This document shows, piece after piece, positions 2,677 through 51,585 of a stretch of 64,000 nt of DNA; positions within the stretch are counted from its first letter, which is position 1; every line of letters begins with the position of its first letter. This stretch comes from an uncultured Planctomycetales bacterium. Lineage in GTDB: Bacteria > Omnitrophota > Gorgyraeia > Zapsychrales > JANLHA01. A program made the translations under genes and the position numbers. The notes below the pieces were generated by a model. It did no database searches. It saw only the letters and a program-made list of their open reading frames with translations, and was not told the DNA's origin. The stretch spans positions 23,244 to 87,243 of the forward strand of contig CAYYRJ010000005.1 of NCBI GenBank assembly GCA_964474085.1. Reading direction: 5' to 3'.

Positions 2677-3486
2677 TTATAAAAGTTTACTCAACGATCT
2701 AACAAAATTTCCGTCATTATAACTTCCGACATATGCCGTTGCTCCGGCATCAATACATTCTTGTTTTGCGGTATCAATGCTGATAGCTTTTTGTCTTGTG
2801 TCGTCTGTCCCGCCTTCGACGGTTTCTTGATAACTGTAAAGGAAGATAGGGATTTTTTCAAGTTTAGGAAGACCGCGGACAATGTTGACGATATCTTTGA
2901 CGGCAATGTTTTCCAAAGGTATTTCCAGCAAGAAGACATTTGGCAGAAATGCTCCAATTTTGGGAAGAATTTGGAGGCAATCCGCCGTTGTTTCGACAGT
3001 ATAATCTTGTTCTTGGAGGTGTTTGGAGATTTCTTGTATAACGCGATCTTCGACGCCGGCAATGAAAATTTTTTTGCTTTTTGTTAATGGTTTGGCGATA
3101 GTCGGCCCCGAGGTGACAGGTGCACTGGTAGCAAGATGTTTATTGACGGTAGCCAGCAATGTTTGCGCATCAAACGGCTTTGCAAGAAAATCCGCAACGC
3201 CCATCGAGGTAAACGTATCTGACATTTTTCCCCGCGCCGTCAAAACAATCACAGGGATTTTTGCGGTGGCCGCGTTCTGTTGAAGAGCTTTAAAAAGACC
3301 AAAGCCGTCTAATTCCGGCATCAGAACGTCGGTAATAATTAAATCTGGTTTCATGGTTTTAATTTGTTCTAATGCGATACGGCCGTTGGGGGCGGACGAA
3401 ACATCATAGCCGGCATTTTTAAGACGCTCAACAATGACATGGCTTAGGTCAGGTTCATCATCGACAACAAGAATTATTTTTGGCAT
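2677..3486 (-). CDS. response regulator: N-terminal REC plus C-terminal receiver-like domain of unknown function
   Basis: ILVVDDEPD...IITDVLMPELDGF...KP receiver signature; C-terminal half weakly REC-like. Confidence 0.7.
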   Translation of the reverse strand: MPKIILVVDDEPDLSHVIVERLKNAGYDVSSAPNGRIALEQIKTMKPDLIITDVLMPELDGFGLFKALQQNAATAKIPVIVLTARGKMSDTFTSMGVADFLAKPFDAQTLLATVNKHLATSAPVTSGPTIAKPLTKSKKIFIAGVEDRVIQEISKHLQEQDYTVETTADCLQILPKIGAFLPNVFLLEIPLENIAVKDIVNIVRGLPKLEKIPIFLYSYQETVEGGTDDTRQKAISIDTAKQECIDAGATAYVGSYNDGNFVRSLSKLL

Positions 3487-3668: not shown

Positions 3669-4037
3669 ATGAAAAAGATTTTGATTGTTGAAGATGAACT
3701 CGACTTATTGACAATACTCAAACAACGCTTGGAACATCACCATTATGAAGTTTTGGAAGCGTCTGACGGAGAAGAGGGGCTAAAAAAAGTCGAGGAAAGC
3801 AAGCCAGACTTGATTATCCTTGATATTAAAATGCCAAAGCTCGACGGGTATACCTTTATTAAGGAAATGCGCACCAAAAAAGAAAATGCCAAAATTCCGG
3901 TTATCGTATTAACAGCGCACGCAAATTTGGATTCTTTGTTTAAAGTTGAAGGAGTAACAGCGTACTTTACAAAACCGTATGAGACGCAAACAATATTGGC
4001 AGCGATTGAAAATGCTTTAAGTTCTGCCGCAAAATAG
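3669..4037 (+). CDS. single-domain response regulator (CheY-like REC)
   Basis: Internal ATG 4 nt after GGAGG; KILIVEDE...LIILDIKMPKLDG...TKP receiver motifs; no output domain. Confidence 0.8.
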   Translation: MKKILIVEDELDLLTILKQRLEHHHYEVLEASDGEEGLKKVEESKPDLIILDIKMPKLDGYTFIKEMRTKKENAKIPVIVLTAHANLDSLFKVEGVTAYFTKPYETQTILAAIENALSSAAK

Positions 4038-4061
4038 AAAAGTAGGAAAGTGGAGAATAAT

Positions 4062-4089
4062 TTGCACGTCGTTGTCATTATGCTATAAT
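4062..4089 (+). promoter_or_regulatory. sigma70-like promoter (TTGCAC, 16-nt spacer, TATAAT) upstream of the GalT-like pair
   Basis: -35 TTGCAC 4062-4067 and -10 TATAAT 4084-4089, about 50 nt upstream of ATG 4142. Confidence 0.4.
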
Positions 4090-4141
4090 CGCTCTTCTTG
4101 ATTAATAAATTGGTGGGTGTTTAATCGTTTTTTAAATATAT

Positions 4142-7797: not shown

Positions 7798-7881
7798 AGA
7801 ATGTTTTTGGGGCACTTGCTTTTTGGTAAATGCTGTTATAATAAACCCGGATTTTGCACTAGCCGAAGGCAAATTTTCATT

Positions 7882-8892
7882 ATGTTTAAAAAATTCCTAT
7901 TTTATTCTTTTGTTGGTGTTTTGATGGTCTGGGCCGCAGGTTGCGAAACTGTTTCTGTGACTCCAGGGGTTTCGCGTGATTTAAAAGTCCTTTGTGAACA
8001 ATACAATATTCAATGGTATTTTGACAATGTTTCGCAGGTTGTGAACCTTCGGGCCGCTGGCCGTGAAGCGAAAGCTTTAGTCGGCAGCAACATCGTTGTT
8101 GTTGAGGGTCAAAAAGTTTTTTTAAGTGACGTTTTGCGTCGGGAACAGGGCAGAGTGATTGTTCCGGAAGATTTTCTGCCCAAAGTTATTTTGCGTGTTG
8201 TCGGTTCCTCCATTGCAGGCCGGCAGGGTTATCATATCGTTGTCGATGCCGGGCATGGCGGCAAGGACCCGGGAGCCAGGAGTCGAAACGGGACAGAAGA
8301 AAAAGATATTACGCTTGATATCGCACGGCGTTTAAAACAAAACTTGGAAGACAAGGGTTTTAAAGTCACGATGACGCGCGATCGAGATGTTTTTATTTCG
8401 CTCGAGGAGCGCACCGAAATCGCCACTCGCGCCAAGGCAGATATTTTTGTCAGCATCCATGCGAATTCCAGTCCGACACGCAATGTCGATGGGATTGAAG
8501 TTTATGCGCTAAGGGATTTGAACAGCGCCGAAAAGCGTGACCCGCAGCGTCTTAAAAACCAGCGTGTTTTGGCAAAAAGTCTAACGATGAAAAACAATGA
8601 TGCAAGTCTTGAGTCGATTATTGCCGACATGCTTTATAACTATAAAATGGCCGAGTCCCAGCTTTTGGCGGCGTACGTTAATAAAGGAACAAGTTTGGGG
8701 GCAAATGTGGTCAGCCGAGGGGTTAAACGTGCGGGGTTTCATGTTTTGCGTAACACTTTGATTCCGGCTGTTTTAGTCGAAGTCGGGTTTTTATCGAATA
8801 CTCAAGAAGAAATGTTGCTGCGAAAGGCTGAGTACCGTCAAAAGATTGCCGACGGAGTTGCGGCAAGTGTGGCGAGTTTTTCGGCACGTTAA
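7882..8892 (+). CDS. N-acetylmuramoyl-L-alanine amidase (Amidase_3, AmiC-like) lipoprotein
   Basis: Signal peptide with lipobox (WAAGC); Amidase_3 core IVVDAGHGGKDPGA...SIHANS...GFHVLRN. Confidence 0.8.
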   Translation: MFKKFLFYSFVGVLMVWAAGCETVSVTPGVSRDLKVLCEQYNIQWYFDNVSQVVNLRAAGREAKALVGSNIVVVEGQKVFLSDVLRREQGRVIVPEDFLPKVILRVVGSSIAGRQGYHIVVDAGHGGKDPGARSRNGTEEKDITLDIARRLKQNLEDKGFKVTMTRDRDVFISLEERTEIATRAKADIFVSIHANSSPTRNVDGIEVYALRDLNSAEKRDPQRLKNQRVLAKSLTMKNNDASLESIIADMLYNYKMAESQLLAAYVNKGTSLGANVVSRGVKRAGFHVLRNTLIPAVLVEVGFLSNTQEEMLLRKAEYRQKIADGVAASVASFSAR

Positions 8893-11889: not shown

Positions 11890-11906
11890 TTGGAGAGGTT
11901 TATTCG

Positions 11907-12088
11907 ATGAATTTTACGGCTCAAGAAACGGTCCCCAGTGGATGGAATATAAAAATAAGAAATAGCTAGAGGGTTAAGGTGGTTAATTTTTAAGGCGAAT
12001 CGGAACGCAGCCCCGATTTTATCCCGCCGATAGGCGGGACTCCAGCGGGGATCGTTTCTTGAGCCGTAAAATTAACCACCTTAACCCG
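11907..12088 (+). repeat. 181-nt structured element: permuted inverted repeat (21-bp and 18-bp perfect arms) with internal GC hairpins
   Basis: 11910-11930 is the exact reverse complement of 12054-12074; 11971-11988 is the exact reverse complement of 12071-12088; inner hairpin CCCGCC-GATAG-GCGGG at 12023-12039. Confidence 0.6.
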
Positions 12089-13614: not shown

Positions 13615-14955
13615 TTAATCTTTAGAAAGCAAGCTTCCAAAAACCCAGAACAAAAAAAGCGGCAAGAGTGAAAAGAGAATGCGGTTTAGCGACACGGAAA
13701 GCCACCACTTGATTTCAAAATACGTATTGACCTGATAGTACGCCACGATCACCGTCAGATAAAGCAGTAAGAATGCGGCGGTAAGAAAGTTTTTGGCCCA
13801 CAGCTTTTTGCCGCCGAGAATTAAGCCCAAGAGAAGTAACATCCACAAGCCATTCCACTTCGCACTTTTTAATTCTAGCCAAAGAAAACTTAAGATAATT
13901 TGAAACCGCTCTGCCGTTGAAGGTTTAAGGGTCGACGTTAAGCCATTGACAAATGTCTGATTGCCTGGCGAATAGAGGATGTTAAACGCAAAAGTCGGCA
14001 AGCTCGCAAGCATTAGCCCAAAGAAAAAAAGTCCGGCGCAAGTAAAAGAAAAGCTTTTGTCTTTACGTAATTTGCTCACAAGGGCTAACCCGAGAACTAA
14101 GGCGCAGAGAATAAGGGAGGCGATCAATCCTTCGGGTTTTGTAAATCCCAAAAAGCCTGACAAAAGGCCAGCGAGCAAGGCCAATGGTTTTTGGCTTTCT
14201 TTTTGCGCTTCTGTAAGAGCCACGATGGAAGCTAAAAGATAGAATGAAAGCACAATGTCGCAGTATTGGGTTGTGGCCAGCAAAATATAAAACGGCAAAG
14301 TCAAAATCAGCAAAGCCGGCAAGAGCGAAAAAATATTTTTGGTTTTTTCCCACAAAGCGCTGCTTAATAATCCGGCGGTCAAGCACGCAAAAAGAACGGA
14401 CGTGATAAAAGGTGTTGTGTCATCCGGTTTTACGCTAAACAACCAGCCCCAGACATTGATCAGCGGCAAAAGAAGCGGATAATGCGGGCTGCTGCGCCAA
14501 AGCTCGGGCGAAAAAAGATTGTGCCAATACTCGTCGGACAAGAACAAAAATTTAGCTTTAAAATTCCAAACCTGCCAGGCGTCCCAGCCGCCGTATGGAT
14601 AAAACAAGCCTTGTTTGATGACGAGAAAAAGCACGATGAGAATAAGGACCGAGAGACTGATGTTTTGCCATGTCGGTTTTGGTAAAGAAAGGCTGACTGC
14701 GTCGTTTTTTCGAAAGATAAAGCGTTGAATCATCAAAGCGATCAGAATCACAAGATGCACGCTGATAACAAACTGCGGCATAAGGCGGTTAAAAAATAAA
14801 AAGCTGGAGAATGTCAAATGGCTGCTTAATCCCAATCCCAAGCCAATACCGAGTGTGCTAGTAAGAAAAAGATTAGGGGGCGGATCTTTTTTGAACAAAA
14901 AATTTATCCACAGAATCCCGATGGCGCTGGAAATAAGAAAGGGCAAGAGGTTCAT
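13615..14955 (-). CDS. polytopic membrane protein (at least 12 TM), possible GT-C-type glycosyltransferase
   Basis: 446 aa, very hydrophobic with periodic TM segments; function inferred only from architecture. Confidence 0.35.
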   Translation of the reverse strand: MNLLPFLISSAIGILWINFLFKKDPPPNLFLTSTLGIGLGLGLSSHLTFSSFLFFNRLMPQFVISVHLVILIALMIQRFIFRKNDAVSLSLPKPTWQNISLSVLILIVLFLVIKQGLFYPYGGWDAWQVWNFKAKFLFLSDEYWHNLFSPELWRSSPHYPLLLPLINVWGWLFSVKPDDTTPFITSVLFACLTAGLLSSALWEKTKNIFSLLPALLILTLPFYILLATTQYCDIVLSFYLLASIVALTEAQKESQKPLALLAGLLSGFLGFTKPEGLIASLILCALVLGLALVSKLRKDKSFSFTCAGLFFFGLMLASLPTFAFNILYSPGNQTFVNGLTSTLKPSTAERFQIILSFLWLELKSAKWNGLWMLLLLGLILGGKKLWAKNFLTAAFLLLYLTVIVAYYQVNTYFEIKWWLSVSLNRILFSLLPLFLFWVFGSLLSKD

Positions 14956-15458
14956 GGCATCTGCCTATGCTGGGTTTTATCAAACGTTTCATTACCGTCA
15001 GCTTTGTAGATAACGTTTGTGTCGGGATTGCCGGCTAAGATGATGCCATAGGGATTAGCTTTGAGCGCTTGCAATTTGAGTTCTTTGATTTTCTTAATTG
15101 CAGCCTGTGGCGTTGTGTAATCAAAAATGACAAATTCGTGGGTCGTATTATTTAAGTCAAGAATCGTTGGCGCCAAAACCAGCTGAGCTTGCGCAAATTG
15201 CATAGCGCTGCGATTGTCGTCGAGATTTTTGTCGGTCGCGTAGCCTATGTGCGGAGCGTTGCCGATAAAATCCTCAAGCCCGCGAAACCGGTCGCCTAAA
15301 AATGTATAGGCAATGCGCTTGCGGACTTGGGACATTTTTATCGTTTCTTTGGCAGAGCAAAAAAGATTGAAAGCCAAGAGCAAAGAGCCGATAGTTAGAA
15401 ACAGCGGCGTTTTCCAGAGTTGTGCAAAAATTAAAAGCTTTTTATTTATTGTTGGCAT
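14952..15458 (-). CDS. hypothetical exported/membrane-anchored protein
   Basis: 168 aa with N-terminal hydrophobic segment; 4-nt overlap with the downstream membrane protein gene suggests co-transcription. Confidence 0.35.
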   Translation of the reverse strand: MPTINKKLLIFAQLWKTPLFLTIGSLLLAFNLFCSAKETIKMSQVRKRIAYTFLGDRFRGLEDFIGNAPHIGYATDKNLDDNRSAMQFAQAQLVLAPTILDLNNTTHEFVIFDYTTPQAAIKKIKELKLQALKANPYGIILAGNPDTNVIYKADGNETFDKTQHRQMP

Positions 15459-15474: not shown

Positions 15475-15549
15475 ATCCAAAAATCCTTTTGTGGCTCAAT
15501 TATTTGGTCCCTACTTCAGGGACTATTCGCCGAAAAAGTATTTTCGGAT
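15475..15549 (+). repeat. structured intergenic repeat, family copy 1 (core GGCTCAATTATTTGG-hairpin-ATTCGCC inside a 16-bp imperfect outer stem)
   Basis: Shares conserved flanks with the copies at 28348 and 37420; inner hairpin TCCC-ACTTCA-GGGA differs but stays paired. Confidence 0.6.
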
Positions 15550-17267: not shown

Positions 17268-17999
17268 ATGAATAAATGTTTGGTCTCTCCGGTTGCATAT
17301 AATGAACACGTCAAGCTTCGAAAGGTCATTGAGCGATTTTTAAAATCGCCGGTTGTAAATCAAGTGGATTATTTGATTGTCGACGACGGCTCTGATGATG
17401 GCACCAGCGAAATGATCCGCTCTTTTGACGCCCAAGCTGTCAAGACGATCCGCCACCCACAGCGTCAAGGGGTTGGGGCTGCGATCCGAACCGCTATCAA
17501 GTACGCCATCGAAAAAGGTTATGATGTTTTGGTCATCATGGCCGGCAATGACAAGGACAATCCGGATGAAATCCCGATTATTCTTGCGCCGATTCTTGAG
17601 AAAGGTTTTGATCTTGTCCAGGGTTCGCGTTATTTAGGAGGCAACCGTATCGGCGGAGACATGCCGTTTTATCGCAAATGGGCCACACGGCTGCATCCGT
17701 TTCTGCTTTCAGTTTTTGTCGGGCATACGGTCACCGACAGCACCAATGGTTTTCGCGCCATGCGGCTATCTTTGTTTAAAGATAAACGTATAAATATCGA
17801 CCAGCCGTGGCTTGATACCTATGAGTTAGAACCGTATATCCTTTTTAAAACGATTCGTTTAGGCTATCGTTTTTGTGAAGCGCCTGTCACAAAAATTTAT
17901 CCGGCCAAAAGTTTGGGGTACACAAAAATGAAGCCGATCGTCGGCTGGTGGAGCATATTAAAGCCGATCTTTTATTTGGGGCTGGGAATAAAGAAATGA
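17268..17999 (+). CDS. family-2 glycosyltransferase, Dpm1-like polyprenyl-phosphate sugar synthase
   Basis: LIVDDGSDDGT...DVLVIMAGNDKD...QGSR motifs of GT2/DPM1-type enzymes. Confidence 0.75.
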   Translation: MNKCLVSPVAYNEHVKLRKVIERFLKSPVVNQVDYLIVDDGSDDGTSEMIRSFDAQAVKTIRHPQRQGVGAAIRTAIKYAIEKGYDVLVIMAGNDKDNPDEIPIILAPILEKGFDLVQGSRYLGGNRIGGDMPFYRKWATRLHPFLLSVFVGHTVTDSTNGFRAMRLSLFKDKRINIDQPWLDTYELEPYILFKTIRLGYRFCEAPVTKIYPAKSLGYTKMKPIVGWWSILKPIFYLGLGIKK

Positions 18000-18760
18000 A
18001 AAAGTGCAACCGCTGCAAAATTGTTTTTCATAATGACGAACGCAAGCAGTGTTTGTATTGTGATACGGATTTGTTGAAAGTTGAGCGTGACGACACGGTA
18101 GGGTTTCGTGATGAAAAAGATTTTGACCCTAACTTGGTCGGTGGGGACATTAGGCGTGAAGTCTCAACGCTAAAACAGATTTTGTCCGATTGGGAATTAG
18201 GAGAATATTTGCGGGCCCAATATGTCGTTGGGACATATTTTAAAGTCAGGACATTCAAATTTTTGTATGACTTTAGCCGCAATCATTTTAAGATGGGCAG
18301 GGATTTTAAACGTCTTCTCGTGCAGCCTTTGAATTTAACGTCCTTTCTGACGCTCCCTTGGGTTATTTATAATACGCTCGACTCGATTTACATCCGTTTG
18401 TCCTATAATGCGTATTGCACAAAATGCGGTTGGAAATTTCATCAGGTACATGCGACCCAATTGCACAATTCGGCAGAATGTGAATACAACATGGAGTATT
18501 CCAGAATCGTCAAGGAGATTTTAAACGGAAACCTGAACAAGACCGAAGGCCTGATCAAAGAAAGCGCGTATAAAAAAATCCGCAGCGGCAAGCGCAGCGC
18601 CTACAAGGACCTGTGTTCTCGTCGCAGCGGGATCGGTTGGTTTTTTGACGTGATGTGTATTTGGCTTTCAATTTTGGCTTTGATGACGATTGTGGTCATT
18701 TTGGTCTTTCCATTTTTTCTTAAGTTCGGTAATTTTATGACAGCAGAGGAGGCGGTATGA
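17996..18760 (+). CDS. hypothetical protein with N-terminal zinc ribbon and C-terminal TM helix
   Basis: CNRC...CLYC pair at the N-terminus; C-terminal hydrophobic helix; start overlaps the GT2 stop. Confidence 0.4.
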   Translation: MKKCNRCKIVFHNDERKQCLYCDTDLLKVERDDTVGFRDEKDFDPNLVGGDIRREVSTLKQILSDWELGEYLRAQYVVGTYFKVRTFKFLYDFSRNHFKMGRDFKRLLVQPLNLTSFLTLPWVIYNTLDSIYIRLSYNAYCTKCGWKFHQVHATQLHNSAECEYNMEYSRIVKEILNGNLNKTEGLIKESAYKKIRSGKRSAYKDLCSRRSGIGWFFDVMCIWLSILALMTIVVILVFPFFLKFGNFMTAEEAV

Positions 18761-26766: not shown

Positions 26767-26957
26767 GTATTATTTGATGTATTCCATTAAGGCAGAACAA
26801 TCCATCGACATATAGTTGAGACATAGAATTAAATATAGATTCCTCCCCCTTGCAGCCTAGGTGAGATGGGGAGAAATTTAATGATATTTGTCGACGATGA
26901 ATTAGCTCTTTTCGTCGACAACATAAAATTCTTAAATGGTGTGCCGCTAAATCTTTG

Positions 26958-27040
26958 GATCCCTGCTTTCGCAGGGATGACATTGCCTTTTTTGTCATTC
27001 ACAGGAAAATATTTTGTCATTCCCGCGAAAGCGGGAATCC
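26958..27040. repeat. inverted pair of GTCATYC-hairpin-GRATC palindromic units (IPAKAGI/SRESGNP-type repeat)
   Basis: ggatccctgctttcgcagggatgac (26958-26982) and gtcattcccgcgaaagcgggaatcc (27016-27040); three six-frame ORFs here encode IPAKAGIQ/SRESGNP peptides typical of this repeat class. Confidence 0.7.
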
Positions 27041-27107
27041 ACTTTTCAGATTGCCCCTTTATCTGACCCGATCTGTGCTGCGAGAGGGAAATTTAATTTG
27101 GACAGCA

Positions 27108-28328: not shown

Positions 28329-28347
28329 ATTTTTTGCGTTAATTTTG

Positions 28348-28430
28348 CCGGTTCTCAAAGTCCTTTTTCGGCTCAATTGTTTGGCGCCTCTATGGCGCTA
28401 TTCGCCTTCAAAAGGACTTTGAAAACCGGC
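28348..28430 (+). repeat. structured intergenic repeat, family copy 2 (21-bp outer stem with one mismatch; core TCGGCTCAATTGTTTGG-CGCC-TCTAT-GGCG-CTATTCGCC)
   Basis: gccggttctcaaagtcctttt ... aaaaggactttgaaaaccggc encloses the conserved core. Confidence 0.65.
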
Positions 28431-28493
28431 AGCCAGCATGATGAAATGATCAATAAAAATATGTATCGACGTACTATAAAGGAAAAATAAATT

Positions 28494-33008: not shown

Positions 33009-33016
33009 TATCTTTA

Positions 33017-33140
33017 CTTTTATCTGCTTTACGTCGGAACGTTCGCCCGCCCCTGCGTATGGCGGGCTTACTCGAAGAAAAACTCGCTCTGATTCCATGC
33101 GAGCTTTGTTTTTCAACGTCCGACTACAAGCAGATAAAAG
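33017..33140 (+). repeat. structured element: about 25-bp imperfect outer stem enclosing two hairpins, one followed by a T-tract
   Basis: cttttatctgctttacgtcggaacgtt pairs with aacgtccgactacaagcagataaaag; inner GCCCGCC-(9 nt)-GGCGGGC; CTCGC-(11 nt)-GCGAG followed by TTTGTTTTT. Confidence 0.55.
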
Positions 33141-33170
33141 CAAAGCCATAAAAGGACAGTATTTTAAATT

Positions 33171-37419: not shown

Positions 37420-37502
37420 ACAGAGTTGATATTGAGTTTTTCGGCTCAATTGTTTGGCGCCTCTATGGCGCAATTCGCCTAAAAACTCAATATCAACTCT
37501 GT
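37420..37502 (+). repeat. structured intergenic repeat, family copy 3 (perfect 22-bp outer stem; core CGGCTCAATTGTTTGG-CGCC-TCTAT-GGCG-CAATTCGCC)
   Basis: acagagttgatattgagttttt is the exact reverse complement of aaaaactcaatatcaactctgt; core nearly identical to copy 2. Confidence 0.7.
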
Positions 37503-50410: not shown

Positions 50411-51585
50411 CGGGACAAATGAAAGAAAAGAAATTTAACCCGGATTTTGCATTAGCCACGCTCCTGCGAGGCCAAGCAAAATCCGCCCAAAGGGCCGCAT
50501 GTCTCGACAAAGTCGAGACGTGTGGGATAAATAACAGGGGAGTCGCTTTTGTTACGGCAATTGTCTTGATGGTTTTATTTTTAAACTTGGGTCTAGGGTA
50601 TTTGATGATGGCCAGAACTCAACTTATGATTGCCCGCAATCAAATCAGTACGCTTAAGGCTTTTTATCATTCAGAAAGTGCACTGCAGCATTCGATCGCT
50701 GAGCTTGTCAACAATGTGGATAAAGATGCCGACGGCTTGGGCAATATTCCTTTGCAGGATTTGGATGGGGATGGAAGTATGGATTATTCGGCAACATATA
50801 ATTCTGCAACAGGAACTGTTTCTTCGACAGGGAACACAGGGACCGACGGGATTGTGCGCACGATTGAAACAAAGATGACGCCTAAAAAGTGGACAGGAGC
50901 GTTTATGGCGGGGCTGAGCATCCCCGCTGTGAGCAATTGTGATTTTAGCACGGTTACAGGCAATGTGTTTGCGCGCAGTGCAATTACACCAAATTTTACG
51001 ACACAGCACACAGTAACTGGTACAGTCACACAAGGCTATGCGTCTTTAGCTATTCCGACAACAATCACAAGCCCGGGTGGGCCATGGTTTAGTTATGCGC
51101 CGGCAGCAAACAGGCATGTCAATTGCCTGTGGGTTACGCCAGCATCCTCGACGATCACAGGGGTGCATTATGTCAATGGAGCTTGCACGATTAATTTGGG
51201 AGGATCAGCGCCTTTGACGATTAATGGATCATTGATCGTCAATGGGAATTTGTCTATTTCTCAAGTGACCAGTTTGATGATAACGCCTGCCGGCAAAGAC
51301 CCGGCCTTGGTTGCCTCAGGAACTTTAAGTTTAGGAAATGTCTCGCCGGGTGTTGTCAATATTCATGGGCTGATTTATGCCGGAGGCAATATATCTTTGA
51401 CGATATGGAATTTTTTCCCGACCCCGAGACATTCGATTAATGGGGCTATTGTTAGTGGGGTAGGGACTATTAGTATGGCTACGATTGCCAGGACGGACTG
51501 GGTGTTTGATTCTTCTTTGAATCCACCATTTTTTACCGGCGGAAGCCCCGGATATTCCGTCGACTATTGGAAGGGACATAAATAA
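50407..51585 (+). CDS. GspK-like minor pseudopilin/pilus tip protein
   Basis: N-terminal RGVAFVTAIVLMVLF...ARTQL hydrophobic segment lacking Glu5, followed by ...YHSESALQHSIAEL, as in GspK; Thr/Gly-rich C-terminal domain with a DGDG motif. Confidence 0.45.
   Translation: MTGQMKEKKFNPDFALATLLRGQAKSAQRAACLDKVETCGINNRGVAFVTAIVLMVLFLNLGLGYLMMARTQLMIARNQISTLKAFYHSESALQHSIAELVNNVDKDADGLGNIPLQDLDGDGSMDYSATYNSATGTVSSTGNTGTDGIVRTIETKMTPKKWTGAFMAGLSIPAVSNCDFSTVTGNVFARSAITPNFTTQHTVTGTVTQGYASLAIPTTITSPGGPWFSYAPAANRHVNCLWVTPASSTITGVHYVNGACTINLGGSAPLTINGSLIVNGNLSISQVTSLMITPAGKDPALVASGTLSLGNVSPGVVNIHGLIYAGGNISLTIWNFFPTPRHSINGAIVSGVGTISMATIARTDWVFDSSLNPPFFTGGSPGYSVDYWKGHK

Follow-up and report, generated by a model that had tools for sequence, protein, structure and literature searches.

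Interspersed palindromic repeats are known chiefly from Proteobacteria, and in these families it is the stem or the ends that are conserved. REP and REPIN sequences reach tens to hundreds of copies and are found in Enterobacteria and Pseudomonas. They have been described as short extragenic imperfect palindromes in which changes in the hairpin are compensated (PMC3116915); REPINs consist of two invariant ends, the REP 16-mers, on either side of a less conserved spacer with compensated changes (PMC3116915).

Our analysis identified a previously undescribed intergenic repeat family of ~90 bp that is confined to a small group of Omnitrophota genomes. It belongs to no named family, and REP/BIME and REPIN-RAYT are the closest. 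As in those systems, the repeats are short, multicopy, extragenic imperfect palindromes that lie in the spacers of housekeeping genes and persist vertically within a lineage. The likeness to REPs and REPINs extends to the predicted single-stranded DNA or RNA hairpins, to compensatory changes in part of the hairpin and to the lack of an adjacent transposase at most copies. Relative to a REPIN, however, the geometry is reversed, with an invariant and asymmetric centre and variable outer arms, and the copies are singlets instead of inverted doublets, the only adjacent pair being a type B copy and a half copy at 11897-12087. Unlike REPs, the repeats have no GTAG-type 5' tetranucleotide, and no RAYT was found in ~510 kb of sequence. 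To our knowledge, inversion of the core from one orthologue to another has not been reported in REPs.

Other described systems share fewer of these features. Integron attC sites have conserved outer R''/R' boxes (RYYYAAC/GTTRRRY) and a variable centre, and they are arranged in one-orientation cassette arrays beside intI. The attC sites are recognised as a folded single strand of defined polarity, as the present repeats may be, and in both the sequence is largely free provided that it pairs and a bulge asymmetry sets the strand; here, in contrast, the outer ends are unconserved, both orientations occur, the copies are scattered among core genes and no integrase lies nearby. The MITEs Correia/NEMIS, ERIC, RUP and BOX are likewise non-coding, ~100 bp long, dispersed between genes and able to form long hairpins. 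MITEs carry target-site duplications, and their terminal inverted repeats are conserved and match a parent IS. In the present family, conservation is lowest at the termini, and neither a duplication nor a parent IS was found. The end hairpins of IS200/IS605 elements and of their miniature derivatives are recognised as single-stranded DNA, strand-specifically, by an HUH enzyme acting in trans, as may be the case here, and there too terminal inverted repeats and target duplications are lacking. IS200/IS605 elements have different left and right subterminal hairpins, defined cleavage tetranucleotides and a replication-strand insertion bias; two distinct end hairpins with cleavage tetranucleotides and strand-biased insertion were both unseen in our family. 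Finally, template switching at hairpin loops and quasipalindromes (plastid non-coding DNA, E. coli and yeast) has been reported to homogenise the arms of inverted repeats and to invert the spacer (PMC8604942, PMC8794818). Repeated evolutionary flipping of a spacer between short inverted repeats is common to those cases and the present one. Those small hairpin-loop inversions are mutational and concern unrelated hairpins, whereas the repeats described here form a multicopy family with a strongly constrained spacer.

The window, i.e., the whole 64-kb stretch of DNA analysed, contains four full copies and one half copy of the family. The original prediction had proposed a three-copy family, and all three copies are present where it placed them; the fourth full copy and the half copy were found besides. 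Type A copy 3 (37420..37502; folding strand, minus) is located in the dinB/rmuC spacer and scores 94.8 bits on the minus strand with the covariance model. Its perfect 22-bp arms (37420-37441 and 37481-37502) enclose the core GGCTCAATTGTTTGGCGCCTCTATGGCGCAATTCGCC (37443-37479). Type A copy 2 (28346..28431, minus; 90.0 bits on the minus strand) lies in the spacer between an aminotransferase gene and ychF. Its arms (28346-28367 and 28410-28431) are unlike those of copy 3 in sequence, and its core (28370-28406) is a single base (A/T) apart from the copy 3 core. Type A' copy 1 (15475..15549, minus; 65.6 bits on the minus strand) occupies the spacer between two divergent genes, a 168-aa gene without assigned identity on the minus strand and a GFO/IDH/MocA oxidoreductase gene on the plus strand. 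The arms of copy 1 are weaker and imperfect, and its core (15493-15531) has an alternative, compensated inner hairpin, GTCCC-TACTTCA-GGGAC; the motifs GGCTCAATTATTTGG and ATTCGCC are kept despite this change. The same core subtype was also found in L045 and, with another loop, in L041.

The type B copy (11971..12087, plus) lies in the queF/rph spacer and was detected by an inverted-repeat scan and by the covariance model (33.3 bits, E=1e-5, plus strand). Its perfect 20-bp arms (11971-11990 and 12068-12087) flank a 72-nt interior (11994-12065) that reads GGCGAAT...TGAGCC on the plus strand, opposite in orientation to the three type A copies. The terminal clamps (GGCTCA...ATTCGCC) are those of type A, and the interior is larger. 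The truncated half copy (11897..11942, plus), found by the inverted-repeat scan and by blastn (91% identity over 33 nt), comprises a single arm and the first 25 nt of the type B interior in the GGCTCA orientation, and 28 nt separate it from the full type B copy downstream. Exact matches to the 15-mer GGCTCAATTRTTTGG number three in the window. Five further matches have three mismatches each, and the looser count of eight is at the level expected by chance (6.0). Against dinucleotide shuffles, the three originally listed copies gave folding z-scores of -11.1, -9.0 and -4.3.

The repeat unit consists of arms of 22-28 bp and an asymmetric 37-nt core, in which a GGC/GCC clamp, a small internal loop, a 5-bp GC hairpin and a 5-nt bulge can be distinguished. 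The clamp and five A-T pairs beside the core, formed by a conserved T5/A5 run, are nearly invariant, and the arms share the loose consensus cttaRccgatttaggaaatccttttt; the stems thus vary less freely than had been claimed. The motifs originally described as conserved and unpaired are in fact partly paired, through the GGC/GCC clamp. A possible AAUU/AAUU helix lacks covariation support, given that it is unpaired in 28 of 49 copies owing to T/A polymorphism, with no compensation, and the segment is treated here as an internal loop. A K-turn or loop-E reading of the GGC-G-AAUU / AAUU-GA-GCC loop was rejected on the same observation and because the sequence, on inspection, departs from the k-turn pattern. 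Neither flips nor gene direction showed, by inspection, any association with the A/T polymorphism at core position 30. No arm-type palindromes lacking the core were found in 390 kb, and arms and core therefore form one unit; this result, together with the arm consensus, rules out insertion of the core into pre-existing palindromes or terminators. Information content falls to zero from ~28 nt outside the core on both sides. Beyond the arms there is no conserved promoter, terminator or target duplication, and neither flank of the repeat scores higher than the other for promoter-like sequence.

The pairing of the stems is overwhelmingly supported by covariation, as the original prediction of always complementary stems had implied. 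The alignment of 50 copies was fitted to the structure by the model, which favours pairing, and the margin is very large: 332 compensated cells were counted, against 84.5 ± 8.7 in shuffles, and none of 500 shuffles reached the observed value. Paired cells amounted to 96%, against 32-51% when the partners were slid by 1-3 columns. Each of the 20 arm pairs has changed on both sides, double changes occur in 22 of 32 pairs, and compensation is also seen at two inner-hairpin pairs (GCGCC/GGCGC -> GUCCC/GGGAC).

Only one of the two strands, 5'-arm-GGCGAATWGCGCCATAGAGGCGCCAAACAATTGAGCC-arm'-3', bears a single-strand folding signature; the original prediction had written its complement (GGCUCAAUUG...). 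Raw arm mismatches that read A·C on the GGCTCA strand, and hence G·T (G·U) on the complement, number 56, versus eight of the opposite kind. After collapsing orthologues into 42 arm groups, the GGCGAAT…TGAGCC strand has 50 G·T versus 8 A·C mismatches (p=1.6e-8), and among its other arm mismatches purine·purine outnumbers pyrimidine·pyrimidine by 18 to 2. Additionally, the arms-only folding energy, computed with the core replaced by a tetraloop, favours the GGCGAAT strand in 47 of 53 copies (p=6e-8), and independently obtained copies agree by eye with the wobble rule (L076, 3:0; L029 variant, 2:0). Mismatches of the opposite polarity cluster at distal arm positions. When wobbles are assigned by transcript, no bias is seen (mRNA strand 23, antisense strand 26), and the folding signature is independent of the direction of the neighbouring genes. 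In principle, the wobble polarity could reflect differential correction and not selection for stability. Tolerance of G·T wobbles does not discriminate between DNA and RNA.

All of the ~60 copies lie between genes, in agreement with the strictly intergenic location originally reported. Typically, a copy begins 3-30 nt past a stop codon and ends 20-70 nt ahead of the next start codon. In the window, the neighbouring genes encode DinB and RmuC, the aminotransferase and YchF, the GFO/IDH/MocA oxidoreductase, and QueF and RNase PH. Elsewhere they encode YggS, ProC and PNP, with both spacers occupied in several genomes, as well as PyrB, PyrC, UDG, TrkA and others, all ordinary housekeeping genes. 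The three copies first listed do share one orientation, as had been stated for the family; across the whole family the orientation is random. With the GGCTCA strand as reference, 17 copies are arranged '>E>' and 17 '<E<' relative to co-directional flanking genes. Core orientation is also unrelated to local GC skew, which is strong (|skew| 0.1-0.2) but positive in core orientation at 21 copies and negative at 23. A mechanism based on single-stranded DNA of the lagging-strand template predicts an orientation bias with GC skew; none was seen, and frequent flips could erase such a bias. Intrinsic terminators were rejected as an explanation: of 47 copies, a T5 run follows the element in 7 when one strand is read and in 9 when the other is, and copy 1 is located between divergent genes. 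Without a U-tract, the copies are not the simple terminators that the original prediction had allowed for as a refutation.

In total, ~60 copies were found across nine related Omnitrophota-type assemblies, and the wider scan that might have returned no more copies instead revealed a genuine family. An exact-pattern scan with one genome per species gave 53 loci, of which ~48 are genuine, all in five Omnitrophota-type MAGs; these are labelled 'uncultured Planctomycetales' (CAYNSM01, CAZNNZ01, CAZWOH01) or Candidatus Omnitrophota (JACKFI01, JAYRHV01). The other five loci are chance or coding matches in unrelated bacteria. One fragmentary MAG alone has up to ~27 exact-pattern matches. Searches of the sequence analysed with nhmmer and the covariance model gave 56 copies plus the type B copy, and since only four of the 56 were missed by the exact pattern, decayed cores do not form a long tail there. 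Of the 37 core positions, 21 were fixed in the first collection scan, and the apparent invariance of the core is in part due to ascertainment. Nevertheless, the 16 unfixed positions are nearly invariant too, and protein-anchored loci show 92-97% core identity beside unrecognisable arms. A graded series of RmuC homologues, which is unbiased regarding the core, was used to fetch contigs; in JADLGJ01, JANPFV01 and a Logan assembly these yielded copies whose cores carry one to three substitutions, and in JAHZTO01 a copy identical to copy 3 of the window. A variant in L029 has similar arms and a 75-nt interior that keeps the GCGCC/GGCGC hairpin around a 34-nt loop.

Outside this group the family was not encountered. 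No match to it was found in virus, plasmid and phage collections. A scan of the JGI metagenome set with the inner hairpin TTGGCGCCTCTATGGCGC, intended as an unbiased test of clamp conservation, gave only 13 chance matches, and the family is absent there. The original prediction had recognised no named element, and indeed Rfam 15 at gathering thresholds detected only a tRNA in the whole window, a permissive Rfam scan of copy 3 gave only sub-threshold miRNA-hairpin noise, and no description of the repeat family was found in the literature. Several contigs stop exactly 9 nt from the core. Because such breaks occur 9 nt on either side, leaving a shared 55-mer (9 + 37 + 9), they are assembly breaks, and the idea that these contig ends mark a larger mobile element was rejected; the usual final assembly k is 55.

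Comparison of orthologous sites shows how the repeats change in place. The dinB-rmuC copy is common to the window, CAYNSM01, JAYRHV01, JAHZTO01, JACKFI01 and a Logan contig. By locus, L053, L021 and L067 have a copy at this site, and L007, L069 and L076 have one with the core flipped; by accession, it is in JACKFI01, the Logan contig and JADLGJ01 that the core runs opposite to its flanks. Between the window and L007, the dinB-rmuC cores are identical at 36 of 37 positions, whereas the flanking genes are only 74-79% identical. The arms at this site are recognisably homologous, and a 1-bp insertion in one is compensated on the opposite arm. Both core orientations were observed in six of ten orthologous site groups, and in the flipped pairs L010/L035, L016/L037 and L002/L029 the flanks are 94-97% identical; these flips were deduced from assemblies of different MAGs, not from reads. 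The arms evolve faster than the surrounding, mostly coding DNA, but keep their pairing; beside flanks that are 94% identical, for example, ~3 of 14 positions have changed in each arm. Intact cores that persist for long at some sites are not expected of a purely selfish element.

Other sites differ in occupancy between lineages. Copy 2 has an ortholog in L046, and L070-72 and L077 have no copy at its site. In the syntenic sister clade L070-72 (RmuC 82-84% identical), the dinB-rmuC spacer is only 12 nt long, the aminotransferase and ychF genes abut, and no copy was found in 21 kb. Other lineages have different hairpin repeat families in the same spacer, and L077 carries a copy at a position where L070, L073 and L076 have none. 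Based on the empty sister-clade sites, this turnover and the shared occupied sites, we conclude that the family is mobile on the genus scale and long-lived at some sites. No target-site duplication was visible when filled and empty sites were compared, in alignments that were poor owing to highly diverged spacers. L076 and L077 have lineage-specific core variants that are common to non-orthologous sites, and gene conversion among copies could add to core homogeneity. A lead to an IHF site was dropped on account of the L076, L077 and L008 core variants, in which the TCAA-N4-TTG match is lost.

The original prediction had called for a search for an associated hairpin-binding transposase, and none was found. 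Pfam analysis of 24 neighbouring ORFs revealed no HUH/Y1 transposase beside the copies, and clustering of 102 adjacent ORFs, all of them housekeeping orthologues, revealed no recurrent non-orthologous gene. A tblastn search of ~510 kb of fragmentary MAG sequence with approximate IS200/IS608 TnpA queries, a weak test, gave nothing at E<0.5. The mechanism outlined below is accordingly put forward by analogy with REP/RAYT systems.

Our favoured reading, held tentatively and at somewhat less than an even chance, is that the family is a REP-like interspersed element whose single-stranded hairpin is recognised by a putative trans-acting protein. The original prediction had offered either a structured RNA or a hairpin-recognised site. 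Of the two, a REP/RAYT-type site suits the data better than does a structured RNA gene or cis-acting RNA because the orientation is 17:17, no promoter or terminator is conserved and the wobbles follow the core. Under this model, the long stem would be required merely as a stem, and the asymmetric core would serve as the recognition module for a sequence- and structure-specific protein that is encoded elsewhere and that binds, and possibly mobilises, the hairpin; a RAYT/IS200-like HUH enzyme is the candidate class. Template switching between the arms during replication may restore complementarity and invert the core in one step. Selection through the trans-acting factor would keep the core asymmetric and would tolerate, on the recognised strand, only G·T or purine·purine mismatches. 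The folded form is more likely DNA than RNA, since half of the copies are antisense to the read-through transcript and yet are equally maintained.

Several other explanations account for part of these observations. The typical placement of the copies, shortly after a stop codon and before the next start within co-directional housekeeping clusters, is what would be expected of a cis-acting RNA hairpin in polycistronic mRNAs that works as a 3'-end stabiliser, an RNase III processing site or an intercistronic insulator; some E. coli REPs have been shown to act in this way, and arms of 22-28 bp would be of RNase III substrate length. Such a stem would work either way round, with the core merely carried along. 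Against this reading, the wobbles show no bias towards the mRNA strand (23 vs 26), as opposed to 50:8 by core strand, copies with the folding strand antisense to the operon are maintained as well as sense copies, and copy 1 lies between divergent genes. It also leaves unexplained why a 37-nt asymmetric core is nearly invariant, and we consider it unlikely. Independent small RNA genes, each with its own promoter, would be consistent with a strong, strand-specific and covarying structure. However, sequence conservation ends with the arms, and neither side has more promoter-like matches than the other. A terminator T-run is lacking, a promoter would not fit at those copies that a stop codon precedes by 3 nt, and Rfam gives no match; this alternative is extremely improbable. 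Taken together, the strand, context, core and flip features disfavour both operon RNA as the main constraint and independent small RNA genes. In a double-stranded DNA site for a nucleoid or regulatory protein, e.g., one similar to IHF, the arms would either be incidental or help a cruciform to extrude. The centre of the E. coli RIP/BIME-1 element is an IHF-type site, and orientation independence is as such a site predicts. By eye, the segment CTCAAttgtTTG of the canonical core matches seven of the nine specified positions of the IHF consensus WATCAANNNNTTR, and the A/T runs flanking the core are conserved. We regard this proposal as quite improbable, given that it explains neither the strand-polar mismatches nor the compensated changes of the inner hairpin.

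The remaining alternatives concern how the repeats spread and invert. A purely selfish, MITE-like repeat, unselected in place, would owe its uniform core to recent spread and gene conversion and its arm complementarity to template switching only. The lineage-restricted expansion, the empty sites of the sister clade, the high turnover of hairpin families in the same spacers and the lineage-specific core variants that recur at non-orthologous sites in L076 and L077 are in line with this explanation. On the other hand, unselected template switching should erase the core asymmetries, and the 50:8 and 18:2 biases would be left unexplained; degenerate cores are few (4/56), neither conserved terminal inverted repeats nor a target-site duplication is present, and a core identical at 36 of 37 positions across flanks that are 74-79% identical is not expected, which makes this account likewise unlikely. 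Frequent flips would explain polarity in both present orientations if the repeat were a phase-variable RNA or regulatory switch, in which the RNA works only with the GGCGAAT strand as sense and core inversion toggles dozens of operons. The flips in six of ten orthologous site groups, some with flanks 94-97% identical, support this possibility, as does the clustering of opposite-polarity mismatches at distal arm positions; exchange near the outer arm ends would move the polarity with the core. Against it, no recombinase is associated with the copies, the arms differ by locus and leave no common invertase site beyond the clamp, an invertible segment of 31-37 bp is too short for conventional synapsis, and heterogeneity within a population is not evidenced, so that we consider it very unlikely. 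A variant in which the host maintains a strand-specific hairpin, with the core as a reversible cassette that inverts between self-correcting arms and thereby toggles the functional strand, seems to us decidedly unlikely. If true, it would mean that dozens of housekeeping operons carry invertible structured switches or address tags for a hairpin-binding protein. The toggled strand would determine which transcript or replication template bears the hairpin, and no classical site-specific invertase would be needed.

For metagenomics, the shared 55-nt segment has a practical consequence, as it breaks the assemblies of these organisms. With its many paralogous and orthologous copies, the family offers a test bed for the upkeep of hairpins by template switching and for REP-like persistence. 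Its strand-specific folding signature indicates that such a signature is possible regardless of transcription direction and replication skew, and it points to a trans-acting reader of the hairpin. In this uncultivated phylum, the family reverses the usual layout of interspersed palindromic repeats and unites three features that are seldom joined: an asymmetric, nearly invariant centre, fast-evolving but compensated arms and frequent inversion of the centre.

In the window, the inverted-arm repeat at 26956-27041 is delimited by 27-nt arms (TGGATCCCTGCTTTCGCAGGGATGACA / TGTCATTCCCGCGAAAGCGGGAATCCA), both of which also form a small hairpin on their own. Related GGATCCCCG...CGGGGATGAC hairpins are located in the dinB-rmuC spacer of four contigs (L074, L075, L077 and L079); together with the window repeat, they constitute a repeat family of their own, apart from the type A hairpin element. 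The ATTCCC-N8-GGGAAT pattern of this family recalls Neisseria dRS3.

The ends are conserved in a third family of palindromic repeats, GTCATTGCGAG...CGAAGCAATC...GATTGCTTCG...CTCGCAATGAC, which has a REPIN-like layout and was observed in L068 (~2585-2700), L024 (~4000-4120), L034 (~104-187), L037 (~3942-4050), L048 (~544-683) and L079 (~1135-1200). In the metagenome-assembled genome CAZWOH01, the dinB-rmuC spacer contains this family, whereas that of the window contains a type A element.

The second structured repeat family, AACCCGGATTTTGCATTAGCCAAGCTCCTGCTTGGCCAAGCAAAATCCG, is interspersed; its copies are located at ~50430-50525 of the window, L034 ~1680 and L045 ~3930, and on the minus strand at L030 ~3030, L032 ~6660, L003 ~200 and L007 ~2870-3070. 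Copies at unrelated loci share 84-98% identity, and those of the window, L034 and L007 are followed by a second hairpin, GGGCCGCATGTCTCGACAAAGTCGAGACGTGTGGG. No Rfam family matched this repeat at the gathering threshold. The window also includes a long intergenic hairpin (33012-33145) with 27-nt arms that are 85% complementary and an 80-nt interior comprising two internal hairpins; the clamps of the type A and type B copies are absent from it.

With respect to type A itself, the yggS-proC spacer of CAZNNZ01 (L014, 5380-5470) presents a degenerate, armless core-like sequence, CGCTCAATTCTTTCGCTCC...GAATTCGCAC, adjoining an unrelated perfect 10-bp hairpin. This sequence probably represents a decayed version of the element still intact at yggS-proC in three other genomes. 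Copy 1 in the window adjoins two consecutive minus-strand ORFs of 446 and 168 aa (13615-15458), neither of which matched Pfam at E<1e-5.

In L077 (~17740-18360), L073 (~7800-8350) and L070 (~17940-18060), the 3' end of a tRNA gene recurs after the gene as a direct repeat (AGCCCTGGCTGGGCA), and in L077 and L073 a small ORF with GIY-YIG-like sequence follows too. This locus looks like the remnant of a tRNA-integrated element.

Runs of ~100 Ns, either scaffold gaps or masked stretches, were found in L017 (2093-2191), L029 (3372-3472), L030 (2007-2106), L037 (2324-2424 and 4425-4525), L039 (4712-4812), L045 (1494-1593) and L048 (3802-3900). Because some are flanked by mutually complementary sequence, e.g., aaacggt[N]accggtt in L037, the assembly gaps are suggested to hide further hairpin repeats.
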